A DNA stretch of 64,000 bases from a virus (IMGVR_UViG_3300032282_002699:1-64000); one strand, 5' to 3'; positions 10,965 to 31,396 are shown, counted from the first letter of the stretch. A program made the numbers and translations. Notes: generated from the sequence alone by a model not told the origin.

Positions 10965-11108
10965 TGCGCATAGGAAGGGGCAAGGGTATACCACTTGCCT
11001 TTACCCCTAAGCTGCTGTATAACTCCCCAGCCGACAAAAAACTTGTGCATCAGAGCGACTACTGAAGGGTAATGGGTATAACTACCTTTGTGGTTGCTTA
11101 TCTCAAAA

Positions 11109-12200
11109 ATGTCTAAGGGTTTTGGAGGGAGTAGGAGGGAACTGATACCTGAGACACACAGGGTCTGTAGGAGGGGCGATGGCTCCATCTATGGGATACC
11201 TGCTGGCAAGAAGTGTAGAAAGGGGGCGGAGGATTATACCACTGTTTACAGAGTAAAAAGGCTCAACGATAAAAAGGAGAGTTTGGGGAAAAAGTTGGTC
11301 GAGTTCATGGAAAAGCCAAGACCTGACGGTGTTGGAAACTTCATGGAGCACCCTGACGAGAAAGCTCTGAAAGTCGTTGACGAGGTGGGGAAGAGAGTTA
11401 AGAAGATAGATCAAAAGATTAACGTATTGGAGGGAAAAAACCCAAACCAGAAGAGATGGGTAGATGGTGACCCCTATGGACTGAAAAAATACTCAAACTT
11501 CTCTTCAACAGCCAGAAGAAACTATGAAGAGGAGATTAAGAATGAGATCTTGGCTCAGGGTGTGCCAGGGAAAAAGGCCGTTCTAGTTGTAGGGGGTCCG
11601 GGATCCAAAAAGATGACCTTATCGGAGAAGAAACTAGCGGCTGCCAAGGGGTTTGTCATCGTCAACCCAGAGGCTATTAGAAACCTGGATCCCGTAATGA
11701 GAGTCGGAAAGGCTTTAGGGGTAAGAAACTCCTCAGCAATGTCTCACGGTAACGCAAAGAGATTGGCTAAGGAGGTCTATGAGGCAGCTAGGGATAAAGG
11801 GTTAAATGTGGTCGTTAGTGTGTCGGGAGTTAAGGCTGATAAACACATTGAGAAGATTAGGGACTTGAAGGGTAGGGGGTACAGGGTGTCTGTATTGGCT
11901 TACCATGTGAACCCTAAAGAGGGAATAGCTCGATCCATATCCAGGTTAGAGAGGCTAGGGACGTTCATTCCCGTCAGCCATGTTCGGAGAGCCCATCTAT
12001 CTATACCTGAACAAATAGAAAAGATGTCTAGGGAAGCTGATAATGCAATTATGTTCGATGTGGGCAGGGGTAGAAACATCGTTCAGTACCAAGCAGGAGC
12101 TATGGTTGGACCGCTATCCCAAGATTTACAGGGGTTTAGAAGAGAGTTTGGCTCCCCCGGCCAACAGCAAACCGCCCCCATCCCCGTAACCACTACCTAG
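11109..12200 (+). CDS. Zeta-toxin-like P-loop protein with degenerate motifs and a Cys-containing leader
   Basis: Paralog of 12929; Walker A reads GGPGSKKMT; N-terminal CRRGDGSIYGIPAGKKCRKG. Confidence 0.7.
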   Translation: MSKGFGGSRRELIPETHRVCRRGDGSIYGIPAGKKCRKGAEDYTTVYRVKRLNDKKESLGKKLVEFMEKPRPDGVGNFMEHPDEKALKVVDEVGKRVKKIDQKINVLEGKNPNQKRWVDGDPYGLKKYSNFSSTARRNYEEEIKNEILAQGVPGKKAVLVVGGPGSKKMTLSEKKLAAAKGFVIVNPEAIRNLDPVMRVGKALGVRNSSAMSHGNAKRLAKEVYEAARDKGLNVVVSVSGVKADKHIEKIRDLKGRGYRVSVLAYHVNPKEGIARSISRLERLGTFIPVSHVRRAHLSIPEQIEKMSREADNAIMFDVGRGRNIVQYQAGAMVGPLSQDLQGFRREFGSPGQQQTAPIPVTTT

Positions 12201-12210
12201 TCTCAGTAAA

Positions 12211-12378
12211 ATGGCAAAAGTTGACATAAAATCCCTACTAAGTAGCGACAAAAGGGAAGAAGCTCAGGCTGATAAAATAGATAAGAAAGAGATTATAAAG
12301 GCTGTACGCAGGTACCCTAAAGATACCCCAGAGGAGTTCGATGAAATCGGATGGGAAGACTTCATGGACCCCCTCTGA
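12211..12378 (+). CDS. Small protein with an acidic C-terminus (55 aa), candidate antitoxin/immunity; not in the ORF track
   Basis: MAKVDIKSLL...PEEFDEIGWEDFMDPL; starts 10 nt after the upstream stop and fills the gap. Confidence 0.6.
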   Translation: MAKVDIKSLLSSDKREEAQADKIDKKEIIKAVRRYPKDTPEEFDEIGWEDFMDPL

Positions 12379-12391
12379 GTGAGGAGTTACT

Positions 12392-12925
12392 ATGAAAAGG
12401 TGTAGTAAAGGAAAGTCATGTGGAGGAACTTGCATCTCTAGGGTTAAAGTTTGCCTGAAAGGACTAGGGGCTAATGCAGATTCCTCTGTTGGACGGCTTA
12501 GGGAAAAGTTAAAGCCAAGCAAGGTTAGTGAAGAGTGGTTTAAGGAAGGTGCCTTCAAGGCGTTTAAGAAACCAGCTAAAGAGCCCTTTGAGGTGGCTCA
12601 AAAGGCAGGGACTATCCAGACCTTAGAGGGCCCTGTCAAGTATGGGAAGGGGTTCTACATAATAACTGGTCCAAAGGGAGAGAAGTACCCTATACCACCC
12701 GAAACTTTTGCCAAGTTGAAGGTTGACAACGGGGATGGCACTGCTAGTCCTAAGAAGATCGTAAAGTTGGCCAAAGAAGCTGACCACTCGGGGGAGGTTA
12801 AAACATCTTGGGGGGAAACTCTTAAGTATAAGCCGGGTGAGGATGTTATTGTAAGGCACGGGGACGGGGATTACGGGGTAGTCAAGAGGGGCATATTTGA
12901 GGAGACATATCAAAGGGAGGGGTGA
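12392..12925 (+). CDS. Cys-rich leader fused to a PGDYG-like domain
   Basis: MKRCSKGKSCGGTCISRVKVC; internal duplication ending in GDGDYGVVKRGIFEETY; GAGGAG RBS. Confidence 0.7.
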   Translation: MKRCSKGKSCGGTCISRVKVCLKGLGANADSSVGRLREKLKPSKVSEEWFKEGAFKAFKKPAKEPFEVAQKAGTIQTLEGPVKYGKGFYIITGPKGEKYPIPPETFAKLKVDNGDGTASPKKIVKLAKEADHSGEVKTSWGETLKYKPGEDVIVRHGDGDYGVVKRGIFEETYQREG

Positions 12926-12928
12926 CAA

Positions 12929-14062
12929 ATGGGTAAGCGGTGTAGTAAAGGGAAATCGTGTGGGGGAACTTGCATAGCCAGACTCAAAGCGTGTTTGATT
13001 GACATAAGTGGGAAGATAAAGTCTTTCCTGGGGAAGGCACGAGATAAGATAAGCGGGAGGCCCAAAGGAGAGTCGTCCGTTGAAGAGAAGATTGATAAGC
13101 TCACAAAGGCAAGAGAAAGGTTTGTAGAGCGGGAGTTCAATAAGCTAAACCAGGATAGGGGGGATGGTAAGGGAACTCACCTTGAAAACCCTAACGAAAA
13201 GTCCTATGCGATGCTGAAGAAACTACATGAGTATACTGAGAACGTAGATAGTATGCTCAACAGGTTAGAGAATAGGCCCCTGGTTACTGCAGTGGATGCT
13301 AATGGTAAAAAGTTTAAGCATGAGCCTAAACGTTGGTATAAAGATAGGCATAATCTGGGCAGGTTCAAGGACTTAAACTCCAAAGCCAGAAAGGAGTTTG
13401 AGGAGAGTCTTATTGAAAATGTCCTGAGTAAGGGGGTAAAAAGTGACTCTCCGCAGGCTATTTTCATGATGGGTGGTCCTGCTTCAGGGAAGTCTACTTT
13501 GCTGGATAAAAGATTTGGTGGGAACCCTAAGGGCTTCCTTGTTATTGACTCAGACAAGATAAAGTCCATTCTTCCTGAGTTTCTCTTTGGGGCCGGAGCT
13601 GGGGACAAGGAGATAGCGGGTAAAGTTCACCAGAGGAGTTCAGAAATAGCAAGGGAGATCCTTAGAAGGGCTAAAGAGAGGGGTTTTAATATAATGTGGG
13701 ATGGCACGGGGGCAGATAGAGAGCTATACACTAATAACGCTGTGGAACTAAAGAAGCTGGGCTACAAAACTCAGTTAATCGCTCAACATATCCCTGAGAG
13801 GGTCGGAATACAACGAGCAGTCAGAAGGGCAGAACTACCACTTAGTATGGGCGGAGGAAGATTCGTACCCCTAAACTTCATTGAAGATGCGTATAACAAG
13901 GTTCCCCGGCACTTTGAGCCACTGGCTAAGCTGTTCGGCTCAGCAACTATCTCTGATGGAATCAGCGGTAAGCAGATTATGCAGTATGGTGGGGGCAAGC
14001 TCACTTCTGAAGACCGCTCAACAGCCCCCCGGTTCCGCCGGAGGTACGGGGATAAGGGTTGA
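12929..14062 (+). CDS. Cys-rich leader fused to a zeta toxin-family kinase
   Basis: RCSKGKSCGGTCIARLKAC; intact GGPASGKST, IDSDKIK, WDGTG and RAVRR...GGRFVP. Confidence 0.8.
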   Translation: MGKRCSKGKSCGGTCIARLKACLIDISGKIKSFLGKARDKISGRPKGESSVEEKIDKLTKARERFVEREFNKLNQDRGDGKGTHLENPNEKSYAMLKKLHEYTENVDSMLNRLENRPLVTAVDANGKKFKHEPKRWYKDRHNLGRFKDLNSKARKEFEESLIENVLSKGVKSDSPQAIFMMGGPASGKSTLLDKRFGGNPKGFLVIDSDKIKSILPEFLFGAGAGDKEIAGKVHQRSSEIAREILRRAKERGFNIMWDGTGADRELYTNNAVELKKLGYKTQLIAQHIPERVGIQRAVRRAELPLSMGGGRFVPLNFIEDAYNKVPRHFEPLAKLFGSATISDGISGKQIMQYGGGKLTSEDRSTAPRFRRRYGDKG

Positions 14063-14087
14063 CACGTCCCCCCTTACCGGCTATAAT
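14059..14087 (+). promoter_or_regulatory. Consensus sigma70 promoter overlapping the zeta stop codon
   Basis: TTGACA-N17-TATAAT. Confidence 0.85.
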
Positions 14088-14113
14088 ATTGAAAGACGAC
14101 CCCCGAGGAAAAC

Positions 14114-14287
14114 ATGGACTACCTTAAGATGCTGGATCTGTTTCCCCAACCCGACGACACTGCCGACGACGCAGTGCTCACCCCTGAGAGCCTTGAGGCA
14201 GTGATGAAAAACACGTTTGCCCCTGACCCTAAGACGGATGAGGTCTACAAGGGGTTTAACTTCGATGCCGGTCTTGAACCTAACTGA
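14114..14287 (+). CDS. Small acidic protein (57 aa), candidate zeta antitoxin; not in the ORF track
   Basis: MDYLKMLDLFPQPDDTADDAVLTPESLEAVMKNTFAPDPKTDEVYKGFNFDAGLEPN; own promoter and GAGG RBS. Confidence 0.7.
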   Translation: MDYLKMLDLFPQPDDTADDAVLTPESLEAVMKNTFAPDPKTDEVYKGFNFDAGLEPN

Positions 14288-14448
14288 ACCGCAGGACTTA
14301 AGAAGACAATGAGCACTGAGATGACTTTCCCCGAGCTTGCGAGGACAGTTATAGATTCCTTGTACTTCTTCACTGCTTTTATAGGCGGCGTGTTTATTGG
14401 TTACCTGATGGGGTATAGAGATGGTAACGATAACTTCTGAGTGACGGT

Positions 14449-14640
14449 ATGGCTTCATTGAACGATGGGGATAAGGGACACAGGGTTCATCAGGTTAAGT
14501 CTCGGTGGTATTACATCTTTTGGGGGATTGCTACGGTCATAGTCTTTTCAGGCCAGATGTTTGTTGGGGTCGGGTATCGCCAAATGGCTGATCAACAACA
14601 CGAGCTTACTGAAGTTGTCCAGAAACTTCTCACTAAGTAA
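14449..14640 (+). CDS. Small membrane protein
   Basis: QVKSRWYYIFWGIATVIVFSGQMFVG hydrophobic segment. Confidence 0.55.
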   Translation: MASLNDGDKGHRVHQVKSRWYYIFWGIATVIVFSGQMFVGVGYRQMADQQHELTEVVQKLLTK

Positions 14641-14684
14641 CCTTTTAGTTATACTTACATTGGGGATAGGAAAGGTGGGTTAGG

Positions 14685-14714
14685 TTGACGGACGGGGGCC
14701 AGACCCTGTATAAT
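14685..14714 (+). promoter_or_regulatory. Sigma70-type promoter
   Basis: TTGACG-N18-TATAAT. Confidence 0.65.
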
Positions 14715-15290
14715 ATGCAAGAAGCTGCTTTAAGGTCACGTCCCGCTCCCTCCCCCCTCTGACACTGCCTTCCACCCCAGGTGCCCTGAAGGTGACTCCT
14801 GAGCAGTGGCTGGAGTATCTGGCCCCCACGCTGGAGGATCAGCGAGGGGACATGGAGACCTTTGGCCCCTGGAACATCCCGGTTCGCTTCAAGGCCCCCG
14901 CCGTCTCAATTGAATGGGGGGAGCACGGCTTCGCAGTCTCCCACACCCTGCACGGGTTCCGCACCTTGTCAGCACTGAAGGAGAGCGGGTACCAACTAGA
15001 GGGACGGGTCTCCATCCGGGGAGAGAAACGCCGAGGATTCACCAGCTCCCTGCTCTGCGAACTGCCTGACGGCAAGCTGCTGGAGACTGCTGTGATCCAC
15101 GTCTGCAAATCTTGAGACTTCCTGCACTTCAGGGGGATTGGCGAATATTCGCCTTGCCGATCCCCCTCCACTCCATTATGCTGTAACCACTGAGACACAG
15201 CCACTTGATTGACTCCAAAGGGACGGGGCAGCGTTCCCCTCCGTTCTTAACTGAGCTTAACACCGTCCCACCTAAATTCCGCCACGGAGA

Positions 15291-15833
15291 ATGACACTCC
15301 CAAACATCGAACATCTGGACATTGATAAAATGTCCATTGAAGACATTGATAACCTTATCCCTCAGTTGGATGAGGCAATGGAAGAACTCAAAAGCCGCAA
15401 ACCTATTCACGAGGTTGTAAGCGACAAGTTCTCTGAGTGTTGGCCACCCATTGAGGAAGAGCTTACCAACGAGTTTCAAGGGACCCTTGAGGAGGAAAAG
15501 GAGCAGTTCCTTTTCAACCACGGGTTTAAGTTGGTTCTTGAAAAGTCAATCGGCGAGGAACACACCAATGAGTTTCTCCGGGTTCTCAAGGTTTGTCTGA
15601 GGAAGAAAAACTTCCGGGCAAATGCAAGGTTTTATAGAAAAGTGAACAACCCCGAGGTCAGTAAAGTAGCCCAGGTAGGGTTCGCCGTTTACCGTCTTCA
15701 CCTTTCTAGCAAAAAGTCGGACAAGTTTATCGGAGGGAACTGGATTAAAGGGGAAATTTCTGAACTGAAAAGGGATGAGAGCCCCGCAGCCCAAGCTGCT
15801 ATCAGGGATTTCACGGAAATCGGTCTGATCTAA
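15291..15833 (+). CDS. Hypothetical helical protein
   Basis: 180 aa ORF with GGAG RBS. Confidence 0.6.
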   Translation: MTLPNIEHLDIDKMSIEDIDNLIPQLDEAMEELKSRKPIHEVVSDKFSECWPPIEEELTNEFQGTLEEEKEQFLFNHGFKLVLEKSIGEEHTNEFLRVLKVCLRKKNFRANARFYRKVNNPEVSKVAQVGFAVYRLHLSSKKSDKFIGGNWIKGEISELKRDESPAAQAAIRDFTEIGLI

Positions 15834-15867
15834 TCAGACCCTAACCATTTTTAACTCAAACAAAGTC

Positions 15868-16410
15868 ATGCAACCGACTGAAGTCTCCACCCTTGAAGCC
15901 TTCAAGGAAAACCTGCTCCAACGTAAAGCCGAGCTTGAAGCTCAGAAAGAACAAGAGGTATCGGTTAAGGAGAAGCTGGAAGACCTGCTGAATGGCAAGT
16001 GGGCTAAAAACCAAAAAGTTCTGGAGGATGGCTACAACAAGAGATTGTCTAGAATGAAGCAGATCGTTCAGTTGGAGCTGGCGATCATTGAGGCCATTCG
16101 GGAGTCAATTGAGCCTGAGGTGGTTGCAAAGGTCGAGGAGGTCTACCTTAAGGTTCGCAAGAGCAACGACCTTACTCAAACGGTCGGCATGTATAGTCAG
16201 TACGCCCGAGACAACTACAAAGTTCGCAAAGTCTTTAAGCTGATTAACGCCGTTTATAGATACAACCGGGATATTATTTCAGGGATGGTTCCTGCTACAA
16301 CCATCAAGTCCTTAATCAAGGATTGCGTTACCTGCCCCACCTGTGGTGAAGTGGCTATGGAAGTCCTATGCAGGATGATCGATAGCAAAGCAGTTCTTCT
16401 ACCTGCCTGA
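15868..16410 (+). CDS. Hypothetical coiled-coil protein with a C-terminal Cys cluster
   Basis: 180 aa ORF with CVTCPTC; followed by a terminator-like hairpin at about 16422-16443. Confidence 0.6.
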   Translation: MQPTEVSTLEAFKENLLQRKAELEAQKEQEVSVKEKLEDLLNGKWAKNQKVLEDGYNKRLSRMKQIVQLELAIIEAIRESIEPEVVAKVEEVYLKVRKSNDLTQTVGMYSQYARDNYKVRKVFKLINAVYRYNRDIISGMVPATTIKSLIKDCVTCPTCGEVAMEVLCRMIDSKAVLLPA

Positions 16411-16794
16411 CGTATAAGCCTAAGGCTTCAACGGGGGCCTTTTGGCCCCCTTATTCCCCCTGTCGAGTCAAATGCCTTCCTACTATGTTCAAACCGACGA
16501 AATCGGAGATTGGGTTGAGAGTTACACAGTTTGGGGGTATGACGGATCCCGCACCATCTGTAACACCTTAGAAGATGTTGAGAAAGTAACGGGTGACGAC
16601 TGGTGCTGGGTTAGTTTGGATGATGCCGTTGTTCATTGGACACGGCAAGCATCCTGGAAAGGCACCACCACTGTTGAGGCTAAGTTTTGGGACTCCCATG
16701 CCCATAAGCACTCTGTAAAGAAGGTTACTCTGAGGGGGTCAACCCCTTGGTATCGCCCTCAACTTACTGCCTGCTGACGAATCGCCGGTTAAGG

Positions 16795-16832
16795 TGGTAT
16801 AATATGGGGGTAAGGGCGGCCGAGCCGCCCAC
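16795..16832 (+). promoter_or_regulatory. Early promoter/stem-loop element, copy 4
   Basis: TGG-TATAAT(16798)-ATGGGGGTAA-GGGCGGC cga GCCGCCC-AC; ATG at 16845. Confidence 0.85.
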
Positions 16833-16844
16833 TGCCTCAAGCAC

Positions 16845-17090
16845 ATGGCTGACGCTGCCACCCTGACCGTTGACAACGCTCTCGACAACCAGGAGTTCAG
16901 TGACTGGTGGGGCAAGGTTCACGCCTCCCTCAAGGACATTTACTGTTGGGATAACGGGCTCATGCTGGAGATCCTGATCGGTTACTATCAGGAAGGGAAG
17001 GACCCTGCTGACACCGCCAAGGTCGCAACCGCAGACTATGAGCAGTGGCAAGGTGAGTTGGAAATGGCCATCCCCATTTGGGATCGTTAA
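16845..17090 (+). CDS. Small acidic hypothetical protein (cassette gene)
   Basis: ORF directly after the promoter element. Confidence 0.7.
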   Translation: MADAATLTVDNALDNQEFSDWWGKVHASLKDIYCWDNGLMLEILIGYYQEGKDPADTAKVATADYEQWQGELEMAIPIWDR

Positions 17091-17693
17091 CCATTATCTG
17101 CTGTATCTGTGGGGCTACCTAGCCCCCCAATCTCCACATCCCTATCTTGAAGGAAAATGGCCACCCCTGTCCCTAACCTCTTTCACGCCCTCAATACTGT
17201 TGCCGATGAGGACGGGTTTGTCCCGTTCTCTGTAGCGAGGTTTGCAGCCACTGCAGCAGCCGTGGACATCTCCTTTGACTATGAGTATGGCAGTCTTAAC
17301 AACATCCGAAGTATAGTGGGGGATTCTGTCGGCATTGATGCCAAAGAGTTCGCTGAGTGGATGGAGAAGGTTACGACAAAATGAACAATAACAACTTTGA
17401 AATAATGAACTTCAACCCAGACCTACTCACTCCGGCTCAACTGGAGGACGTGGAAAGAAAAATAGCAGAGTCTAAGCTCAAAAGGCAGCAGGTCAAGACT
17501 TGGGGAGTCACGTTCCGTGTGTCCTTCCTCCCGTTTGACCACCCAAACGAGGTCATAAATAGCAGGTGTGATTTCAGGAGCACCCTGGTCGATGCGCTAC
17601 CAGAGTTCATCGAAGGCCTGTTTAACCTCAAAGGGGTGGAAAGGGTGACTGACATCCGTGTGAGTGAGCATAATGGCGAAGGGGAGGGACCCC

Positions 17694-17750
17694 TTGCGTT
17701 TGGGCCGGGGGACGTAGTATAATATGGGGGTAAGGCGGCAGGGCCGCCAC
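17694..17750 (+). promoter_or_regulatory. Early promoter/stem-loop element, copy 5
   Basis: TTGCGT-N18-TATAAT(17718)-ATGGGGGTAA-GGCGGC agg GCCGCC-AC; ATG at 17763. Confidence 0.85.
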
Positions 17751-17762
17751 TGCTTCAGACCC

Positions 17763-18077
17763 ATGAACGACGTTATCCAGACCATGCTCAATCAGATCGG
17801 CGGCATCGGCCCCATCTGTGCCATGACGGGTGCTCGGATCATTTACGACAATGAGACCGACTCGGCCACCCTCCACTTCAAGCGTCAGATTGGTGCCAAC
17901 AAGATCAGCCACCTCAAGCTGACCTACAACCCTGGGACTGACTTGTACGACATGAAGGGCTACCGCTACAACAAGCGCACCTTTGCTTGTCCTGAAGTCT
18001 GGTCGCAGCAAATGGTTTATGCCGATTGCCTCAAGCGTGTATGTGAGGATGTAACTGGTCTCTACTTCACCCTCTGA
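17763..18077 (+). CDS. Phage hypothetical protein (cassette gene)
   Basis: QIGG...AMTGA...TDLYDM...VYADCL...TGLY pattern; start placed after the element. Confidence 0.7.
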   Translation: MNDVIQTMLNQIGGIGPICAMTGARIIYDNETDSATLHFKRQIGANKISHLKLTYNPGTDLYDMKGYRYNKRTFACPEVWSQQMVYADCLKRVCEDVTGLYFTL

Positions 18078-18111
18078 GGTGGTCGGTAAGGAACCGGTAA
18101 GAATGCGGATG

Positions 18112-18136
18112 AAGCCTCGGGAAACCGGGGCTTTTT
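18112..18136 (+). terminator. Rho-independent terminator
   Basis: AAGCCTCGG gaaa CCGGGGCTT followed by a T tract. Confidence 0.85.
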
Positions 18137-18333
18137 CTGTTGTTGGTTTTTCCTCGCCCCTCGGGATGCTGACGAAAGCAGACAGGGTTGCTAGTGGGGG
18201 TAATGTTAAGGACGGTAAATAAATTGGCCACTATGCGGGGCAATGACTTGCTTTACCGCCCCCCTAACGTTTAAGATAAATGGGTAAGGGCAACCAAATC
18301 GCCCCCATAACCCAAACCAAAGGAGAACCTAAA

Positions 18334-18600
18334 ATGGCGAACCGCTCTTTGACTATCCGTAAGCCTCTGGCCCTGTACTCCCGTCTGACGGACCTGGAAA
18401 ACCTCACAGTGAGGGAAGCTCAAGACACCAATGCTCGGGACAGGGTTCAGAACACTCTCCGTATCAACGGTGCTGAGGTGTCCTTCACCGTGACCCCGAT
18501 GGTGGCTCAACCTGGTCGTTACTACCGCCTCTTCCGTGTCAACGGGAAGCGGACTGCCAAAGAGGAAGTTCCCCAGAAGCTCCTGACCGGGGCTTCCTGA
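18334..18600 (+). CDS. Hypothetical protein, paralog of 18799
   Basis: AAGGAG RBS; shared IRKP..L..RL and INGA.V.FTVTP motifs. Confidence 0.75.
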   Translation: MANRSLTIRKPLALYSRLTDLENLTVREAQDTNARDRVQNTLRINGAEVSFTVTPMVAQPGRYYRLFRVNGKRTAKEEVPQKLLTGAS

Positions 18601-18620
18601 TCTGCCCCAGGGAACAAATG

Positions 18621-18652
18621 AAAAAAAGGGGGGGGAGACCCCCTATTTTTTT
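18621..18652. terminator. Bidirectional terminator-like hairpin
   Basis: A tract, G/C stem, T tract. Confidence 0.7.
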
Positions 18653-18743
18653 GTCTGTTTGGTTGGTCCGTAGGACATAGCTCCCGCCAGGAGTCAGGTT
18701 ATAGACAGGTCCAAGGGGGGCCTATTGCGTGCCCGTCCCAATG

Positions 18744-18781
18744 TGCTATAATATTGGGGTAAGGGCGGTTGACCCGCCCAC
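18744..18781 (+). promoter_or_regulatory. Early promoter/stem-loop element, copy 6
   Basis: TGC-TATAAT(18747)-ATTGGGGTAA-GGGCGG ttgac CCGCCC-AC; AAGGAG RBS; ATG at 18799. Confidence 0.85.
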
Positions 18782-18798
18782 CTTTAAGGAGAAACACC

Positions 18799-21498: not shown

Positions 21499-21544
21499 CC
21501 CTCATTCCACAACAACGTAAATTCGCCATTCGCAAACACCGAAC

Positions 21545-22707: not shown

Positions 22708-22736
22708 TTGACCATATGCAGCCAAGGTGCTATAAT
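22708..22736 (+). promoter_or_regulatory. Sigma70-type promoter
   Basis: TTGACC-N17-TATAAT with TGn. Confidence 0.7.
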
Positions 22737-23849
22737 AATGGTGAATCGCCCCCGTGGAAATGAAAACCTCTCCCTGGATCGTTAAAGACGGTTACTGCGC
22801 CATGCGAGTCATTGCGGGGTCAGACCCCAGCCTTACCGCTAATCGGGTTGCCTTCATTGAAAAGACCCCACGCATTCGGGTTGCTCCGTTTTCCGAGAAG
22901 GAAGACTTCAAGAACTGGGAGTCAGGCCCTAGTGGGAGCGGGGGAGGCGACCCTGAAAAGGACGAGACCTACGGATTCGATCCGTACTCCCGTAAGTGGT
23001 GCGATGAGCGGCTTATTGCTATGGGTTTTGAGCTTGGTTGAGGGTACCTTTTGTGAAATTAGAACTTTCCTGCAAATTGCTGAGCAGTTGTGTATGCTGC
23101 GGCCATGGCTCAGGTTTTTTCAGGGTTTTTGGTTACGGTCTGGCCTGGAAGGATACCAATGTTCACCCTTTACTCTTTAGCGAACGGCTAAGGGTAACAA
23201 AGTTCCTTAGGATTGGTCGTTACATCATAAAACCTCTCACGAGGGATCAACTGAACATTGTGAAATGAACTCAAGTGAAGCTAGAAGACTCATTGGCAAG
23301 GAGATACTGTGGGATGTAGCTATTGAAAGGCACCGAAGTATACTCGGCCCTAGCCGTGGCATTGTCGAGGACGTGTCAGGGAAGAACATTCTCATTAGTG
23401 GGGATTGGAGATGGTTGCCTGACATTCGCAATGTATCCGTGTTAAATGAATACTGACGCCCTACTAAGAACGTTCAACTTTAAGATGTTTTACTATGGGG
23501 TAGCCTTTGACGATGTCCCGACTAACTGGTTTGTAAGATGGTCTACTGGGAAGAAATCATGGAAAAGATTCTGGATCTTTAGAAAGTTGAAAGTCATAAA
23601 TAAAACAGAAGAGGACATTGAGGTATTTTGCCAGTACCTTGACATCTGGGATAAGAAACTCTATCTGTTCTTTACGCCTCCTGAGATTACCGGAAGTAGG
23701 AAGATTGTGTATTTTTCAAGTTCTCATGAACCTATGACAATGTTGGAAAGCCTTAAGGCTAAGCTTGATGCTAGTTCGTTGGGGGATCACACCCTGTTCA
23801 ACACAAAAGACCTAGGCTGGTAGTTCACCTTTAGACACATTTAGAAGTA

Positions 23850-24422
23850 ATGGAAAACAAAACTGTAGTAATTAACTTGTTTGGCGGATCAGGGTGCGGT
23901 AAGTCTACGACCGCCGCTCTCCTGTTTGCCCGCATGAAACTCAATGGAATGCACGTTGAGCTTGTCAGGGAGTATGTCAAGTATTGGGCATGGAATGACC
24001 GCAAGGTCAGAGAGTGGGATCAGCTTTACCTCCTCGGAAAGCAAAGTGCTTACGAAAGCATGTTGTATGGGAAGGTCGATTTCATTGTAACCGATAGCCC
24101 CATTCTCCTGGCTGGCATCTATCAGGACTACAGGTCTGGTGGACTTGACAAATACGTGGGCTATGCTGCAAAGTCTTTCATGAATCATGCAAAGTCCACA
24201 GGAGTGGAGTATGTGAACCTCATCCTGAAGCGCACTAAACCCTTCGATCCACGTGGACGATGGGAAACAGAAGAGGAGGCTAAAAAGATTGATGAGTTCG
24301 TTAGGAACTACCTAGTTGATTATGATGGTATCCCGATTGAAGTTTACGGACCCAACAACAAGAGGGATGAGGAGATTCTCAACATTTTGCAAGCAAATCG
24401 TAAGATCGAGTCTTGGGAGTGA
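23850..24422 (+). CDS. NadR/AAA_28-type P-loop nucleoside/nucleotide kinase
   Basis: INLFGGSGCGKST, ELVREY, VTDSPILL and GRWETEEEA motifs. Confidence 0.8.
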   Translation: MENKTVVINLFGGSGCGKSTTAALLFARMKLNGMHVELVREYVKYWAWNDRKVREWDQLYLLGKQSAYESMLYGKVDFIVTDSPILLAGIYQDYRSGGLDKYVGYAAKSFMNHAKSTGVEYVNLILKRTKPFDPRGRWETEEEAKKIDEFVRNYLVDYDGIPIEVYGPNNKRDEEILNILQANRKIESWE

Positions 24423-24486
24423 AGTCTGTTTCGGCAGATGTTGGGGGTTTCGGGTAAGGGAAAAGGAATCGTTAAATTTGATCCAC

Positions 24487-25314
24487 ATGAAACAGTCACA
24501 AAATAAAAGAGTTACAGGTAAAGAACAGTATTACACCCCGGTTGAGACAAGTTCCCACTGTCTTGAAATTATGCTGAAGTTCTCTCCAGATAGGGGGCAA
24601 ACATGGCTAGAGCCTGCGGGAGGGACAGGTTCATTTATTGAGGCTTTTACGCTGTCCGGTATAAAAGAAGACAAAATACTTTCATTTGACATAGAACCTA
24701 AGCACAGACTCGTAAGACTGACTGAAGACTTCTTACAAGAGGATATCTCTTTCATCGCAGGTTGCACCACATTAACTAACCCCCCATTCGGAAGGGCTAA
24801 TAAGTTATCTGTACCATTCTTCAACAAATGTGCTCAGGTTTCAGACTTCATAGGATTCATAGTGCCAAAGAGCTGGAGAAAATGGTCGGTTATTGACAGA
24901 CTGAACCCGAACTTCCACCTAGTTTATGACGAAGACTTGAGCATAGATTATGTCTACGATGAACATGACCAGAGCCGTAGTAAAGGGAAGTTGGCTACCG
25001 TTTACCAGATATGGGAAAGGCATGACTATGAGAGAGAACCCATAGTGGTAGAGGATAGAGGATACATTAAGAAATGTTCTCCTGAGGAAGCAGACGTTAG
25101 CCTAACTGTATTTGGTAGGGGGTGCGGAGGCTTATCGACTGAGTTTCCCCGAAAACCCAACACTACCCAAATGTTCTTAAAGGTTGCAGATGGGGCTGTA
25201 CTAAAAGCATTGAACTGTGTTGATTACGAAAGGTTTTTCAATAATGTTGCCTTTGTTGAAGCTCTCTCCATAAAAGAGATACGTTTCTTGCTGAATGAGT
25301 ATTTTGATAGTTAA
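24487..25314 (+). CDS. DNA adenine methyltransferase (gamma-class motif order)
   Basis: EQYYTP, motif I LEPAGGTGSF, FDIEP, motif IV TNPPFG, FIVP. Confidence 0.85.
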   Translation: MKQSQNKRVTGKEQYYTPVETSSHCLEIMLKFSPDRGQTWLEPAGGTGSFIEAFTLSGIKEDKILSFDIEPKHRLVRLTEDFLQEDISFIAGCTTLTNPPFGRANKLSVPFFNKCAQVSDFIGFIVPKSWRKWSVIDRLNPNFHLVYDEDLSIDYVYDEHDQSRSKGKLATVYQIWERHDYEREPIVVEDRGYIKKCSPEEADVSLTVFGRGCGGLSTEFPRKPNTTQMFLKVADGAVLKALNCVDYERFFNNVAFVEALSIKEIRFLLNEYFDS

Positions 25315-25425
25315 GGACTGAAAAGGATTTGGACTATTGACATGGGGAAATTGTGCCGCCCTCCTCCCAAGGTAGTTAGCGATGGGGTACCTGAACAAAA
25401 CTGAACGATTTTAGACTGATAAGAA

Positions 25426-26022
25426 ATGAGAACTGCCGAAATTAAAAAGACTTGCAAGGATCTTGAAATCGAAACTAATGTCCTATACAGTTGCCAAATT
25501 GACAGCTTGACTGTTAACGTGGGTGGAGTTCCGATCGATGTAACAGACACTATGAAAAACGGTAGAACAAATTATCAAATAACTGAAAACATCGTCTGTA
25601 AGTTCTTTAATCTTAACAAGGGAATCGGAGTAGACTTGGTTGACTATGCCGGGAATAAATATGAGATTAAAGCGTTTTTAGATAGCGACGCTTACCCCGG
25701 AGATGGGAAGAGAGAGGATAGGATCCACACTGCGGCATCCAGTGCATTTAAGGCAAATAATAATGGGCCAACAATCTCTAGGCTAGTAAAAAACGACAAC
25801 TATGGGGAGGCACTTTCGATTTGCGACAAACTAAGCTATAACAAAATTGACTACTTCATTTACACGAATACCCGTCAGTTTAAAGCTAGCCAGCCGCTCA
25901 AGATCATGTTTTTCGAAAAGGAATATGTTATGGACCGACTAGATCCTGAGGATCCACGGCTAATCTCACGCCGAACACTTTTGAACTCCTGCACCGGGAC
26001 GGTTCACCTTTCCCTTGACTGA
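25426..26022 (+). CDS. Putative PD-(D/E)xK endonuclease
   Basis: ITEN...GVDLVD...KYEIK motif; adjacent to the methyltransferase; AT-rich. Confidence 0.4.
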   Translation: MRTAEIKKTCKDLEIETNVLYSCQIDSLTVNVGGVPIDVTDTMKNGRTNYQITENIVCKFFNLNKGIGVDLVDYAGNKYEIKAFLDSDAYPGDGKREDRIHTAASSAFKANNNGPTISRLVKNDNYGEALSICDKLSYNKIDYFIYTNTRQFKASQPLKIMFFEKEYVMDRLDPEDPRLISRRTLLNSCTGTVHLSLD

Positions 26023-26042
26023 GGCTTGGGCATCGGCATCCC

Positions 26043-26100
26043 TTGCACTCCCCCCGGAAGTCTGGTATAATATGGGAGTAAGGGCGGCTGAGCCGTCCAC
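26043..26100 (+). promoter_or_regulatory. Early promoter/stem-loop element, copy 7
   Basis: TTGCAC-N17-TATAAT(26066)-ATGGGAGTAA-GGGCGGC tga GCCGTCC-AC; ATG at 26117. Confidence 0.85.
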
Positions 26101-26116
26101 CGCTGAGGGGGTCAAA

Positions 26117-26746
26117 ATGGAAGCAATCAAATACCCCCGGACGTTCCACCTGCCGTGGTCCGAGGCCATCACCTCCGACGACAAGGTTTCCCAGTCTGTG
26201 TCCCAGTTTGAGGGTCGCATGGTGGTGGTGACTGAGAAGATGGACGGTGAGAACACGACCATGTACCGGGACAACATTCACGCCCGCAGCCTGGATGGCA
26301 AGGGTGGGGAGGACCGGGCCTGGGTCAAACAGTTTTGGGCTCAAATCCAGGGTGACATCCCCCAGGGGTGGCGAATCTGCGGTGAGAACCTTTGGGCCCG
26401 CCACAGCATTTCCTACTCTGATCTGCAGTCGTTTTTCTACGGGTTCAGCATCTGGGATGAAAACAACATGGCTCTCTCTTGGGAGGATACTGTTGAATAC
26501 TTCGGTATGCTTGGTGTCCAGCCGGTGCCCGTTATCTACTCTGGGGTCTGGAACGAGAAGGAAATTCGCAACCTTGTGAAGGGCCTTGACGTGTCCAAGA
26601 CTGAGGGTTACGTTGTTCGCCTGGCTGATGCCTTTGCCTACGACAACTTCAGCCAATCCGTGGCAAAGTTTGTCCGCAAGGGCCATGTTCAGACCGACAA
26701 GCACTGGCGGCATCAGGCTATTGTCCCCAATGCCCTCATTGCTTGA
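26117..26746 (+). CDS. RNA ligase family nucleotidyltransferase
   Basis: KYPRTFHLPWS, motif I TEKMDGEN, CGEN, EGYVVR and AKFVR. Confidence 0.9.
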   Translation: MEAIKYPRTFHLPWSEAITSDDKVSQSVSQFEGRMVVVTEKMDGENTTMYRDNIHARSLDGKGGEDRAWVKQFWAQIQGDIPQGWRICGENLWARHSISYSDLQSFFYGFSIWDENNMALSWEDTVEYFGMLGVQPVPVIYSGVWNEKEIRNLVKGLDVSKTEGYVVRLADAFAYDNFSQSVAKFVRKGHVQTDKHWRHQAIVPNALIA

Positions 26747-26752
26747 TTGACT

Positions 26753-26777
26753 GGCCCCTGGGAAAGGGGCCTTTTCT
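26753..26777 (+). terminator. Rho-independent terminator
   Basis: GGCCCCT gggaa AGGGGCC followed by TTTTCT. Confidence 0.75.
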
Positions 26778-26835
26778 CTATTGACTATCGGCGGGTAAGA
26801 GAATGGGGTTGACCCGCCAAATAAATACCCCAGTT

Positions 26836-27600
26836 ATGAAATTAGAAGCAGTAATCGTCTGTGTGAACTACGCCGACTTCCTATCACATACTCTGCCAAG
26901 TTCCTCCTCTCAGATTGATAACCTCGTTGTTGTTACGCATCCTAGCGACAAGGACACACAGGCACTATGTTCCTATTATGGGGTTGAATGCGTTGTAACG
27001 GAAGTTTTTTACGAAAACGGAGACATTTTCAATAAAGGTAAGGGTATCTGTGAGGGGTTGAAACACCTTGACATGGACGGGTGGGTGCTTCACATGGATG
27101 CTGATATTTACCTCCCTCCAACAACTAGGAAGGCTCTTGATAATGTCCCATTGGACTCATCTAAGATTTACGGGGTTGACAGGTTGATGTGTCAAGGGTA
27201 TGACAAGTGGGTTAAGTTCATAGAAAACCCCCGGCCCATACACACTTCCGGCTACCTCGTCCACTTAGGCTATTTCCCTGTTGGAGCACGTTTGGTGAAG
27301 TACAAGGATCCGGGACAAGGGTATGAGCCGATCGGGTTTTTCCAGCTATGGGACCCTTCAGGGTCGGGGGTGTACGAGTACCCTAAGAAGCATGGTGCGG
27401 CGGACAAAACAGACGTCATCCATGCTAAGAAGTGGCCCAGGAGTAAGAGGGAGCTTTTGCCGGAAGTTGTTGTTATCCATCTGGCAACAACTCAGAAGAT
27501 GGGGGCTAATTGGAATGGTAGGACTTCCCCAAGGTTTGGAAACTTCTCCACCTCTGACTACCTTGACCTACCTGATTACGGAGGTTATTCATCAACCTAA
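26836..27600 (+). CDS. GT-A fold glycosyltransferase (GT2-like)
   Basis: AVIVCVNYADFL, FNKGKGI, HMDADI (DxD) and GFFQLW motifs. Confidence 0.75.
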   Translation: MKLEAVIVCVNYADFLSHTLPSSSSQIDNLVVVTHPSDKDTQALCSYYGVECVVTEVFYENGDIFNKGKGICEGLKHLDMDGWVLHMDADIYLPPTTRKALDNVPLDSSKIYGVDRLMCQGYDKWVKFIENPRPIHTSGYLVHLGYFPVGARLVKYKDPGQGYEPIGFFQLWDPSGSGVYEYPKKHGAADKTDVIHAKKWPRSKRELLPEVVVIHLATTQKMGANWNGRTSPRFGNFSTSDYLDLPDYGGYSST

Positions 27601-27653
27601 CGGTAACTACACTTTTCTAAAACTTTTCTAAACTTTCCAACAAGTTTTGTAAA

Positions 27654-28181
27654 ATGGTAACTATCTACAAACCTCCCACAAGTCTATCGAGTGTATGGTC
27701 ACGGGACAGGTATAAGGTGTTTCTGGCGGGATCAATCGAGATGGGGAAGGCTGAGGATTGGCAATCCCGCATTGAGAGTGAACTGTCCGATCTTGATATG
27801 GACATTTACAACCCCCGCAGAGATGACTGGGATTCCACCTGGGAGCAGAGGGCCGATAATCCTCAGTTTAGGGAACAGGTGGAATGGGAGCTTTCGGCCC
27901 TTGAGGCTGTCAACACCATTGTCATGTACCTGTCGCCTGGGACAATCAGCCCCATCTCCTTGTTGGAGCTTGGCTTATTTGCAAAACCTTTCAACGGGAG
28001 GCTAATCGTTTGTTGTCCCGAGGGTTTTCACAGAAAGGGCAACGTTGACATTGTTTGCCAAAGGTGCAACATTAAGCAGGTTGAGCAACTAGATGATGTG
28101 GTTTCTCTGCTAAGACAGAAAGAGGAAAAGTTCAGGAATGAACCTGCACCTGGTCCTTACGAACTTTTCATTATCTCTTGA
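27654..28181 (+). CDS. Nucleoside 2-deoxyribosyltransferase-like protein
   Basis: VFLAGSIE, NPRR, QVEWE and SPISLLELG motifs. Confidence 0.85.
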   Translation: MVTIYKPPTSLSSVWSRDRYKVFLAGSIEMGKAEDWQSRIESELSDLDMDIYNPRRDDWDSTWEQRADNPQFREQVEWELSALEAVNTIVMYLSPGTISPISLLELGLFAKPFNGRLIVCCPEGFHRKGNVDIVCQRCNIKQVEQLDDVVSLLRQKEEKFRNEPAPGPYELFIIS

Positions 28182-28579
28182 AGTGAGGGGGTAATAATAA
28201 TAAAAAAAAGTTTTTCATATTCTTTTGAAAATTATTTCTAGGCAAGTATGGTATCTCTGAAGATAGTTGTTAAGTCGGGAGGAAAGTGGCACCGGGCCAT
28301 CTATACAAATGACTCCACGGGGGTTCAAGTCGCTGTTCTGGTTAGGGAGCCCCAAGGGGACAAGGTGAGGCTGTCCATTCCGATCGAAGGGATGGGAGGC
28401 TGGGCCGTGACCCTCCCGTCGCCGCAACTGGCTACCAAAGTGGCTCACAGGGAGGTGTCGATGGTCGGAAGGCTCTACAACAGGATCGTGTTCCTGCCGT
28501 GGGCGTTCATCCGTCACGAGCTTCGTTGACCTCCGGCCCCCTGGCGTGCTATAGTGTAAGCAGTTAGGTGCCAACGGAA

Positions 28580-29215
28580 ATGCAAGTAAGGTTTATAGGA
28601 GATGTACACGGGAAGTGGAACATCTATAAGAAGATAATCAAAGGGTGTGACCGATCCTTGCAGGTGGGGGACTTTGGGGTGGGCTTCCGTAACCCGATGA
28701 CGGAAAAAGACTATAGCAATCCCCCCTACGACCACATGAAGAAGGGTGAGCATTACTTCATCCGGGGTAACCACGATAACCCCGCAGTTTGCTCTAGGCA
28801 CCCGTTCTGGATCAAGGATGGTGGCAATGTTTTCGGGAGAAACGACATCTTCTGTGTCGGCGGAGCACTGTCTATAGACAAGGATCGTCGGACTGAGGGG
28901 TACGACTGGTGGCACGATGAGGAGCTTTCCTATGGGCAGCTCTGCAATCTCATGGATGCCTATGAGCTTATCAAGCCTGCCATTGTCGTGAGCCATGAGT
29001 GCCCCGATACTGTGATTTCAAGGGTTTGCCATGAGAAGGGAATGCACAAGTATGACATCCCCTCTGTGACAAGAAGGTGCTTCGACAACTTCCTAGAGAT
29101 TCATAGGCCTGACATCTGGATTCATGGCCATTGGCATCTCTCGTATTGGGCTATTCACAGGGGAGTCCAGTTCATCGGTTTGGGTGAACTAGAGCATCTT
29201 GACCTTGACATTTAA
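28580..29215 (+). CDS. Calcineurin-like metallophosphoesterase
   Basis: IGDVHG, QVGDFG, RGNHD, SHECP and HGHWH motifs; promoter TTGACC-N18-TATAGT at 28526-28555. Confidence 0.85.
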   Translation: MQVRFIGDVHGKWNIYKKIIKGCDRSLQVGDFGVGFRNPMTEKDYSNPPYDHMKKGEHYFIRGNHDNPAVCSRHPFWIKDGGNVFGRNDIFCVGGALSIDKDRRTEGYDWWHDEELSYGQLCNLMDAYELIKPAIVVSHECPDTVISRVCHEKGMHKYDIPSVTRRCFDNFLEIHRPDIWIHGHWHLSYWAIHRGVQFIGLGELEHLDLDI

Positions 29216-30344
29216 CCCGTTGTTAGATGACCGAATCACTTAGTTTAATGGACATAGACGAGTTCATAGTTAGTTACGGGAAGTTGTTCGACTTCAAGGA
29301 GTTTAAGTATGACCTTCTCTACGAAGCAACAGAAGTTGAAACTTTCTTCGGTCGCAAGAAGGTTGAAAACAGGTACTACATGACACGCTCCTGCCGGGAT
29401 ACCATCTACGAAGGGGTGCATCATGTTTTCTCCTATGACCGCTTATTCGGCTCATACAAGTTTGTGAGGCCAAATCATTTACCACACGACAGGATATCTA
29501 CAGTGTACTGGGAAGATCGCCAAGATTCTATCAATTTCCTGACAACATTGAAGGGTCGGCTAGACCCGAAGGAGCACGTGTCTTATGTTGTGTTTAGCTC
29601 CGACGATGTTCCTTAGCAAGGGTAAAATCTTGACTGTCGTATCAATTCTCCCAGAGAAATGGGATTCCCTTATGGAGTAACAGCGGGGATCGGTCTTGTT
29701 TTACTAGCAACGATCTGGTTTATTTATTACGTTCTAACCCTAGATTCCACGAAATAGTAGAGAAATGTTTGAGCTTAAACTGAATGAGGCTGCGTCCATC
29801 GTATGCAGAAACCCTGTCCATGTGCCACAAGCTGTATCACTACTATCCAAATCACTACCAAAAGACAACTCCGTGTCCATGAGTGTGGACGCTATAGTTA
29901 GTCACTGGTGGGACCGACAGCTCTTCCTTAACATTAAGCTGACGTGAAAATAGGGTAATAGTTCAGCTAAAGGACTTTTTAACAATGTCCTAGTAGTTGT
30001 TCAGTTTAATCTATGGTTCACTTATTAGTATCGGAGGGGAGGAATACCGACCCAGTAAGATTCTTTCGCAGCAGGGTTAGGGTTTATGTGGGTGAAGACT
30101 ATGCCTATGGCTTCTGGGTAGATGAGGACGTTCTATTTTCTTTCCTAGACATTGACCAGAAGAAGGAATACCTGACTAAAAAGAAAGGAATCCCCTTAGA
30201 GTTGACAATAGAGCGCCGTCTGGTTCAGCGGCTTGTGGAGACCGATCACACCATCAAGGGTAAGAGGGAGATCCTCCAGTTTTTGTCAGAGGTTGACTAA
30301 GGTAGGGTAAAATGCTAAAATGGTAGGAGGACGCTCGGAGTCAA

Positions 30345-30506
30345 ATGGACATTAACAGCCCCGAAATCAGCAGGAAGCTTGCTATTCTGATTCAGTACCT
30401 TGACTTTGAGGAAAGGCGGAAGTTCCTTGAGAAGGCGGCTGAGTCCCCTGACCTGCGCTTTTTCCTGGAGAGTTTGATCGAAGCTAAGGGGGTTAAGGAC
30501 TTATGA
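30345..30506 (+). CDS. Small helical protein (53 aa), candidate immunity protein; not in the ORF track
   Basis: MDINSPEISRKLAILIQYLDFEERRKFLEKAAESPDLRFFLESLIEAKGVKDL; GGAG RBS; ATGA overlap with 30503. Confidence 0.65.
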   Translation: MDINSPEISRKLAILIQYLDFEERRKFLEKAAESPDLRFFLESLIEAKGVKDL

Positions 30507-31396
30507 CAATCCTTTCTTTCTCTGGCAAGGACAGATGCCACCTTGGTAAATCATGTGGGGCCTCTTGTATTTCCTCCCTAAAGAGATGTGTTATCGAACT
30601 GGGTGAGGTTTTTAAGGGTTCGCTTGATAAACTAAAGTCTCGTGTTTCTGGGGTTTTCAAAAAGGAACCTTCCCCATTAGAGGGGTCACCTAAGTATGAT
30701 AAGACGTTAGGAAGCAGGACACCCCTAGAGAAGGGGAAGGTCACAGATAAAACTACGCTTGCCGACGTTTATAAAATGCAAGGGTTCAACTCTAAGCCCG
30801 AGCTAGTTGCAAAGAGAACCGACCTACTGGGCAGAGGAGATACTCTCAGGGATAGTTCGGGAGCCCCGGTTATGTTTTATAGGGGTGTATCCAATAAGGA
30901 ATACTCTAACCAGTTTAAGGGGGCGGGGGAAAATGGGGGGGTTCACTTCCCAGGAAAGGGGGTATACGGGGATGGTACTTATGCCGCCGCTAGCTCTGTC
31001 AAGGACGAGAAAGCATCTAGACACGCTAGAAACACCGCCATTAGCTACTCACAGCCAACGAATGTACTGTCCTTATCCCCCGGTAAGAGAGAACTTAACA
31101 GGAGGGTAACTGCTTTTTCCTTGCGAAGGGATGCAAATCTAGTACAGTTTGAGGGGACTCCTCAGGAGAGGCACAGCAAGTTCTGGGAGTGGGCTAATAA
31201 AACCGTTGATGCAGCGAGAAAGCAAACAGGAGTTCCTATAAATGACGTTGGTCTTGCCGCTGCAATAATGGGCATCCATGCCTACCAGGTTCCACTAGAG
31301 CCTGTGGAAGGGAGGAAGTTCTCAGATTATTGGGTTATACTAAACCGGGGAGCAGTCATAGCAGCAGTGAATCCAGAGCTTTATCCTAAAAAATAA
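30503..31396 (+). CDS. Cys-rich leader fused to an ADP-ribosyltransferase-like domain
   Basis: RCHLGKSCGASCISSLKRC; QGFNSKP, MFYRGV, FPGKGVYGDGTYAA and YWVILNR motifs. Confidence 0.6.
   Translation: MTILSFSGKDRCHLGKSCGASCISSLKRCVIELGEVFKGSLDKLKSRVSGVFKKEPSPLEGSPKYDKTLGSRTPLEKGKVTDKTTLADVYKMQGFNSKPELVAKRTDLLGRGDTLRDSSGAPVMFYRGVSNKEYSNQFKGAGENGGVHFPGKGVYGDGTYAAASSVKDEKASRHARNTAISYSQPTNVLSLSPGKRELNRRVTAFSLRRDANLVQFEGTPQERHSKFWEWANKTVDAARKQTGVPINDVGLAAAIMGIHAYQVPLEPVEGRKFSDYWVILNRGAVIAAVNPELYPKK

Follow-up and report, generated by a model that had tools for sequence, protein, structure and literature searches.

Four genes in the first 64 kb (64,000 nucleotides, hereafter the window) of the 90,322-bp IMG/VR virus record IMGVR_UViG_3300032282_002699, the completeness of which is estimated at about 32% by CheckV, encode proteins in which a short, basic, cysteine-containing N-terminal tag is followed by one exchangeable enzyme domain. 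Two unrelated tags are present, a four-cysteine form (tag 1) and a two-cysteine form (tag 2), and each of them heads a large protein family. The payload of one of these genes, which resembles ADP-ribosyltransferases (ARTs), is found in other viruses behind tag 1, behind tag 2, or behind the MuF head domain. We consider it probable, with some reserve, that the tags are capsid-loading addresses and that the enzymes bearing them are taken up into the virus particle and carried to the next host. The tags would then serve the purpose for which MuF toxins have their MuF domain. Enzymes that are injected together with phage DNA include T4 Alt, the RNA polymerase of N4 and MuF fusions, and how free-standing enzymes enter the head is understood for very few phages.

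Two cysteine tags and their exchangeable payloads

The tagged open reading frames (ORFs) of the window, with the leader of the first, are the following.

11109–12200, plus strand: tag-2 protein with a zeta-kinase-like domain and a degenerate Walker A motif, GGPGSKKMT (Zeta_toxin, E 8.1e-18)
11166–11225: two-cysteine leader of ORF 11109, CRRGDGSIYGIPAGKKCRKG
12392–12925, plus strand: tag-1 protein with a four-cysteine leader (cysteine span nt 12401–12454), a helix and a PGDYG domain (PF14083, E 1.3e-7)
12929–14062, plus strand: tag-1 protein with a four-cysteine leader (cysteine span nt 12941–12994) and a zeta-kinase domain with an intact Walker A motif, GGPASGKST (PF06414, E 7.9e-22)
30503–31396, plus strand: tag-1 protein with a four-cysteine leader (cysteine span nt 30536–30589) and an ART-PolyVal-like domain (residues ~80–297)

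An earlier reading of this DNA, made from the sequence alone (the sequence-only reading), had named these four ORFs and three small neighbours, and all seven exist as it described them. The leader that it had seen on ORFs 12392, 12929 and 30503 has the spacing C-x5-C-x3-C-x6-C, with 14 of 58 columns invariant in an alignment of the three, and a six-frame regular-expression search of the 90,322-bp record for the core C..G..CG..C finds three sites only, at 12401, 12941 and 30536, each at the start of an ORF. The different cysteine leader noted on ORF 11109 is real as well, belongs to a family of its own and is the sole tag-2 motif in the 90-kb record. Pfam bears out the PGDYG call for ORF 12392 (32.3 bits, cut-off 27), a family of no known toxic function, and the zeta calls for ORF 12929 (78.1 bits, cut-off 22.3) and ORF 11109 (65 bits). 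Membership of the latter is by hidden Markov model only, its P-loop reading GGPGSKKMT against GGP[AG]SGK[ST] in the family. No window protein carries more than one payload according to Pfam and PHROGs, and the tagged window proteins have no Pfam match to Phage_Mu_F (PF04233).

Tag 1 spans about 40 aa and consists of basic residues, the motif C-x-K-G-K-S-C-[GS]-A-T-C-I-x4-K-x-C and an amphipathic helix. A search with a profile of the three leaders yielded 314 cluster representatives at E ≤ 1e-3 among 1.84 billion; the motif, position and Pfam counts that follow refer to the 150 of these representatives that were listed. The four-cysteine motif is present at fixed spacing in 150 of 150, and in 142 it begins within the first 50 residues. 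Across 153 tag-1 sequences no variation occurs at the four cysteines, G+3 and I+11 and hardly any at K+4 and S+5, and a conserved helix (L-V-[DE]-L ... K-[VL]-[RK]) followed by a Lys-rich linker lies downstream of the cysteine motif. An origin of the leader by chance or low complexity is ruled out by the 314 representatives and by the presence of the motif in every one listed. A lipoprotein or signal-peptide reading is ruled out too, the tags being strongly basic and without a hydrophobic core.

The domains that follow tag 1 are diverse. Pfam families on 145 of the 150 listed proteins comprise Pkinase (30), ABC1 (18), APH (13), ADPrib_exo_Tox (6), OspG_kinase (4), ART (3) and Zeta (1), and 13 further families with one or two members each. 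No family is common to most members, and tag 1 is therefore without a Pfam model; NCBIfam holds no model of it, and neither tag is covered by Pfam, PHROGs or NCBIfam. An ESM Atlas search with the leader alone gave generic helical matches only and no usable feature match. On viral contigs, 14 loci were found in which tag 1 stands on kinase-like, HExxH-containing and Pro/Lys-rich proteins, and two or three tagged genes often lie a few kb apart.

The five longest tag-1 proteins were scanned separately from the 145. Four of them, the giant proteins P0106, P0119, P0138 and P0157, carry two four-cysteine tags each, among lipase/cutinase-like or LRAT-like domains; the fifth is P0076, the portal fusion described below. 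In the four metagenome proteins one unit is repeated, in which a small beta-rich domain precedes the tag and its helix, a low-complexity linker leads on to a hydrophobic helix rich in Gly and Ala, and the last element is a lipase/cutinase-like or LRAT-like domain.

Tag 2 reads [FY]-D-F-T-R-C-x-R-x-[DN]-G-[ST]-x-Y-G-x3-5-C-R-K-G, and its profile matched 558 proteins at E ≤ 0.01 among 8,000 scored candidates. The motif was checked in 111 proteins (P0187–P0297), those that were new among 120 listed of the 558, and was present in all 111, mostly at residues 15–40. At least two copies occur in 32 of these proteins, and tag 1 occurs in none of them. The payload classes overlap those of tag 1 in protein-kinase-like and ART domains and additionally include CTP_transf_like (cytidylyltransferase/NMNAT-like). 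When viral contigs were scanned with a three-sequence tag-2 profile, 42 pattern stretches matched and none was confirmed. The conserved N-terminal module with exchangeable C-terminal enzyme domains that the sequence-only reading had postulated is present on a large scale (314 tag-1 and 558 tag-2 matches).

Individual payloads also occur behind more than one module. In the window, the zeta payload stands behind both tags in paralogous genes, behind tag 2 in ORF 11109 and behind tag 1 in ORF 12929. Of 15 close homologues of the 12929 zeta protein, 12 carry tag 1; one of the other three is a fragment, and the remaining two are gene calls whose start falls within the tag or shortly behind it. Window gene 12929 is itself publicly called at 355 aa, with a start past the last cysteine of the tag. 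Scans of viral and metagenome contigs for the zeta payload found distant zeta genes only (24–34% identity), with no tags.

The payload of ORF 30503 has no Pfam or PDB sequence match; Pfam is empty at E ≤ 1 for all 25 family members too, and a PDB sequence search with the family profile gave nothing under E 0.15. The protein matches the C-terminal part of phrog_16619, annotated as 'minor head protein' (E 9.8e-21). In the ESM Atlas its feature match to ART-PolyVal is 0.92 (173 shared), and by structure it matches the ART-PolyVal cluster with a TM-score of 0.49 and a MuF-bearing cluster with 0.72. Residues H148, Y160 and D210 are invariant across the payload family, which fits the H-Y-D site described for the ARTs of polyvalent proteins in section 9 of PMC5512222. 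The ADP-ribosyltransferase-like call of the sequence-only reading is therefore favoured by the feature match, the structure matches and the H-Y-D residues and finds no counterpart in Pfam or PDB sequences; the label 'ART-like', drawn from sequence and model-based comparison, is reasonable but unproven.

Twenty-four homologues of this payload divide into three with tag 1, 15 with tag 2 and six with neither motif, one of the six being a start-truncated tag-2 form. At 40 viral loci with a 30503-type payload, the N-terminal part is tag 2 in 21 and untagged in 19, and Phage_Mu_F was found in seven of the 10 untagged long forms scanned. The ART-like payload is interchangeable behind tag 1, tag 2 or the MuF head domain. 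Since the same payload and the same family of small ORFs occur behind these alternative N-terminal modules, one cassette travels behind three of them, one being a known head protein.

Virion evidence and the S-CBWM1 lineage

The window codes for a Mu-type portal (PF06074, E 1e-71), a Mu-like prohead protease, a tail sheath, a DNA polymerase and a topoisomerase II. Nearly all of its long ORFs lie on the plus strand, and proteins identical to those of the record are also present on a 188,647-bp contig. The nearest cultured phage is the Synechococcus phage S-CBWM1, with a portal identity of 59.6% over 64% of the query, and S-TIM5-like cyanophages come next (portal about 34%); the window is therefore assigned, by sequence comparison, to the cyanomyovirus lineage of S-CBWM1. 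At the DNA level, positions 11000–14400 matched no isolated phage. The portal and the protease confirm the Mu-type head module that had been claimed for this virus. The MuF-like gene without a toxin extension that had been claimed along with it is rejected, the 90-kb record containing zero Phage_Mu_F matches at E ≤ 1.

Both tags are present in S-CBWM1. Tag 1 heads five of its ORFs, namely APH-like, ChoK-like and RIO-like kinases, the hypothetical protein gp106 and a 'virion structural protein', the gene of which immediately precedes the major head gene; tag 2 heads two, an NMNAT and gp165. For the ChoK- and RIO-like kinases the GenBank starts lie downstream of the tag, although the reading frame extends through it without a stop, and the annotations of the RIO- and ChoK-like kinases (NC_048106.1 70398–71324 and 117830–118702) accordingly omit it. 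Protein gp106 and the tagged 'virion structural protein' (NC_048106.1 66779–68341 and 132375–133961) are apparent paralogues and contain an HNH-like stretch (ExxH ... N ... N) in the middle of the protein. The 90-kb record contains no homologue of the S-CBWM1 major head protein, and none of gp023 beyond the tag itself.

According to PMC10665884, which cites Xu et al. 2018, the APH, ChoK and Rio2 kinases and an NMNAT-like protein are present in S-CBWM1 virions, a second-hand report. All four of these virion-named enzymes are tagged, in a genome with seven tagged ORFs among about 180 protein genes. The PknB-like kinase of the same phage matches neither tag profile and is not named as virion-detected in the available part of PMC10665884, and the tags shared by the S-CBWM1 enzymes are not mentioned in that part either. 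A Ser/Thr phosphatase and an alpha/beta hydrolase are further untagged enzymes of S-CBWM1.

Tag 1 is also joined to head proteins. Protein P0076 begins with Portal_Mu, homologous to the window portal (E 2e-50), and continues with two tag-headed modules (ParB-like and a C-terminal domain). In P0141, a domain homologous to the N-terminus of the window prohead protease (E 1e-15) is joined to tag 1. Three indirect lines, the portal- and protease-like fusions, the tagged 'virion structural protein' and the virion enzymes of S-CBWM1, suggest that tagged proteins are associated with the virion.

Small adjacent ORFs, distribution and neighbouring genes

The sequence-only reading had assigned a tiny partner ORF to each toxin-like gene. 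The three ORFs concerned are these.

12211–12378, plus strand: 55-aa ORF occupying the space between two tagged genes; singleton cluster
14114–14287, plus strand: 57-aa acidic ORF downstream of the zeta gene
30345–30506, plus strand: 53-aa ORF of a conserved family, M[ND]IN.P..SR.LA.LIQ...R..F..A, with an ATGA overlap with the payload start

All three are real and figure among the gene calls of public collections, having been overlooked only in the ORF track of that reading. A link to the payload is seen for the 30345 family; 12211 and 14114 are singletons, with no relatives that would support a partnership. A homologue of 30345 lies directly downstream of the ART-like payload gene in 30 of the 40 viral loci, in most cases overlapping or abutting the payload stop codon (largest gap 52 nt), and three of these 30 loci belong to the seven MuF forms. 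The family comprises 21 distinct sequences of 49–57 aa with eight invariant positions, many of the loci being near-duplicates. In the window the order is reversed, with 30345 upstream of the payload, while the small ORF is downstream in all 30 other loci. ORF 12211 had no match in five related genomes or in the other fetched loci; ORF 14114 gave only weak 20-residue matches inside unrelated ORFs of about 360 aa and none in the other fetched loci. From these comparisons, the 30345 family is a candidate immunity protein or chaperone of the ART-like cargo, and the putative antitoxin status of ORF 14114 is unsupported.

Two promoter-like sites lie ahead of small ORFs.

14059–14087, plus strand: sigma-70-type promoter-like site, TTGACA-17-TATAAT, ahead of ORF 14114; 12 of 12 positions, a consensus match only
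30293–30321, plus strand: promoter-like site, 10 of 12 consensus positions, ahead of the small-ORF/ART-like pair, with GGGTAA at 30305

The hexamer GGGTAA occurs more often in the window than expected (66 sites vs 37.7 ± 6.1), with 49 sites on the plus strand, and is found 34–45 nt upstream of several gene starts, among them those of 11109, 30345, the portal and the protease, a placement that hints at co-regulation.

Both tags are almost always N-terminal and occur in uncultured viruses and S-CBWM1. Four tagged genes are present in our record, eight in another genome (G001, two with tag 1 and six with tag 2) and five in a complete genome of 279 kb (G002). Exact-pattern scans of 185,579 prokaryotic species genomes, made with narrow patterns, gave no confirmed case at first and then one, a broken frame on a 7.4-kb contig of a metagenome-assembled genome. 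This near absence from cellular genomes is weak evidence, but fits a module of lytic viruses, and the S-CBWM1-like lineage looks lytic.

Several features of the neighbouring genes were recorded in passing. The portal ORF (46965–49001) encodes 678 aa, of which only residues 3–438 align with the S-CBWM1 portal; its C-terminal part of about 240 aa is an acidic, Pro/Glu/Ala-rich extension without a tag. Directly upstream and abutting it is a GIY-YIG homing-endonuclease-like ORF (46141–46965). The prohead protease ORF (49046–52198) encodes 1050 aa, vs 480 aa in S-CBWM1, and residues 2–181 and 340–472 of the S-CBWM1 protease match its two ends (nt 49052–49585 and 51776–52177). The intervening stretch of about 730 aa is unmatched and may be an insertion or a much expanded scaffold part. 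Farther downstream, a DNA methyltransferase gene (59000–60655) adjoins a 496-aa ORF (60701–62191) with a weak PcfJ-like match (E 5.8e-5, under the family cut-off).

Proposed capsid loading, its rivals and related systems

If the tags load capsids, the four window genes would encode cyanophage cargo, each protein being made up of one exchangeable enzyme domain preceded by a basic linker and, at the N-terminus, by a short address tag. The tag would dock the enzyme to an internal component of head assembly, which could be the portal, the protease-scaffold or a tagged internal head protein. The enzyme would thereby be enclosed in the procapsid, would leave it with the DNA at the next infection and would then act on host targets, and the protein of about 50 aa encoded beside the ART-like gene probably restrains or chaperones that enzyme in the producing cell. 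We infer docking, metal binding, ejection and host activity of the tagged enzymes from the findings described above.

Several observations weigh against capsid loading. Some giant tag-1 proteins carry two-cysteine variants, C-G-x-x-[YF]-I-x5-C, and a four-ligand zinc site is consequently not universal. In multi-module giants the tag recurs ahead of each module, an arrangement that a delimiter or processing role fits equally well. The virion detection of tagged enzymes rests on the summary given in a later paper, PMC10665884, in which it is also pointed out that non-structural proteins in CsCl-purified particles are possibly abundant contaminants. Phages S-TIM5, S-CRM01 and S-CREM2, for which virion kinases have been reported, are without either tag (0 of 3 with each profile), and the tags are therefore not the sole route into the virion. 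Finally, the sigma-70-like site ahead of the 30345/30503 pair would, if functional, suggest early rather than late expression.

The possible contamination raised in PMC10665884 would also suit a different explanation, in which the tags are metal-binding or disulfide knuckles that steer the enzymes to one shared target within the cell (phage or host DNA, RNA polymerase or ribosomes, for example), and virion detection is carry-over. The composition of the tags, very basic and with much Cys, Lys and Arg, resembles that of nucleic-acid-binding knuckles, and RNA polymerase is a target of kinases and ARTs in T4 and T7 (in part from PMC5512222). However, payloads as varied as lipase/cutinase, LRAT-like, zincin, ParB-like, NMNAT and PGDYG domains are too diverse for one target, fusions join the tag to a portal and to a protease-like head protein, and the head protein MuF replaces the tag on the same payload. 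We consider steering to an intracellular target unlikely. The tags may instead be processing or delimiter elements, that is, recognition sites or pro-segments for the prohead protease or another peptidase, which mark module boundaries, perhaps keep enzymes inactive until cleavage, and have no docking role. Their position ahead of each module in multi-module proteins agrees with this (32 of 111 tag-2 proteins have at least two copies, and the tag-1 giants are alike), and so does the precedent of the T4 capsid-targeting sequence, which is about 10 residues long and is cut off by the prohead protease. Two of the three window leaders, however, start at residues 2–5, leaving nothing upstream to cleave, and a 40-aa domain with invariant Cys, Gly and Ile residues and a conserved helix exceeds a cleavage site. 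Processing could in any case coexist with docking, and as a full account of the tags we find it quite unlikely.

The presence of Zeta_toxin domains and of adjoining small ORFs, one family of which is payload-linked, is what would be expected of ordinary phage modules of the toxin-antitoxin or superinfection-exclusion type, working within the infected cell and with leaders that are incidental family features. Against this, the small ORFs have no Pfam or PHROG match to epsilon/PezA-like families, ORFs 12211 and 14114 are without relatives, and kinases, NMNAT and numerous enzymes that are not toxins also bear these tags. The lineage, moreover, has a lytic appearance, and cellular genomes are almost free of the tags. 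We regard such modules as very improbable here. All three rival explanations fit fewer observations than capsid loading does. A more specific version of the capsid-loading reading, in which the two unrelated cysteine tags and MuF are interchangeable addresses for one capsid-loading route of S-CBWM1-like cyanophages, operating through metal-bridged co-assembly with tag-bearing head proteins (a portal extension, the protease-scaffold or the internal head protein encoded beside the major capsid gene), is conceivable, and we put it forward tentatively.

If this more specific version is correct, a portable signal of about 40 aa would be able to load any protein into a phage head, and the tagged set would represent the injected 'first-minute' arsenal of a whole aquatic phage clade. 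An address that can be read from sequence would allow the injected proteome of uncultured cyanophages to be predicted from the genome alone, and would explain the recurrent kinases and NMNAT-like enzymes in cyanophage virion proteomes; a small portable tag could also be used to bring foreign proteins into capsids. Gene callers often start downstream of the tag, which hides it in many database entries. The concept is established by head-packaged enzymes, MuF toxins and polyvalent proteins, and what is without a Pfam or NCBIfam model is the tags. Limited text searches of the literature found no published description of either tag; PMC9503650 mentions cysteine in contexts unrelated to the tags and PMC7824862 contains no mention of it.

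With the zeta/epsilon (PezT/PezA) systems, the window shares two proteins of the Zeta_toxin fold family, those of ORFs 11109 and 12929. It differs from them in having no epsilon/PezA-like partner, in the N-terminal tags, which classical zeta toxins do not have, and in the degenerate P-loop of ORF 11109. The motif GTxR, by which zeta toxins bind UDP-N-acetylglucosamine (UNAG), is not evident in the family consensus '..DGTGAN..'. A closer likeness is found in phage T4, where the internal proteins IPI–III bear a capsid-targeting sequence and are packed into the head. As in IPI–III and Alt, a short N-terminal address in the window stands on unrelated proteins, one of which is an ART, and the T4 proteins are head-packed and injected with the DNA, as described for the ART Alt in PMC5512222. 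Unlike the T4 capsid-targeting sequences, to which they have no sequence likeness, the tags are conserved cysteine mini-domains that also occur inside giant proteins.

The polyvalent proteins (Iyer et al. 2017, PMC5512222) have H-Y-D ARTs, protein kinases, zeta-like kinases, zincins and ParB-like domains in common with the tagged families, are likewise predicted to be delivered with the DNA, and resemble the multi-module, tag-headed giant relatives of the window proteins. They contain at least two unrelated effector domains per polypeptide, whereas the window proteins have one payload each, and cysteine tags and PGDYG are not mentioned in the available text of that paper. In S-CBWM1, the virion-reported enzymes (PMC10665884) bear the same two tags; the payloads of the window differ from them in being zeta, PGDYG and ART-like domains.

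MuF toxins (PMC5576092) are alike in that an N-terminal head module is joined to a C-terminal enzyme or toxin that varies, a small ORF frequently lying beside the gene, and in their proposed delivery with DNA, and the 30503-type payload and its small-ORF family stand behind true MuF domains in other viruses. Unlike in MuF toxins, the N-terminal module in the window is a cysteine tag of about 20–40 aa without Phage_Mu_F; cysteine tags are not mentioned in the available part of PMC5576092, which describes MuF toxins as exclusive to temperate phages and prophages, whereas the window lineage is nearly absent from cellular genomes. Two hallmarks of polymorphic toxin systems (Zhang et al. 2012; Jamet et al. 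2017) are found here, a conserved N-terminal module with variable C-terminal effectors in the case of both tags, and the same effector cassette behind different N-terminal modules in the case of the ART-like payload and of zeta. The window itself contributes the presence of the two tags within a single short gene cluster, where they stand on paralogous zeta genes, and a three-way interchange of tag 1, tag 2 and MuF on one payload with a conserved small partner.

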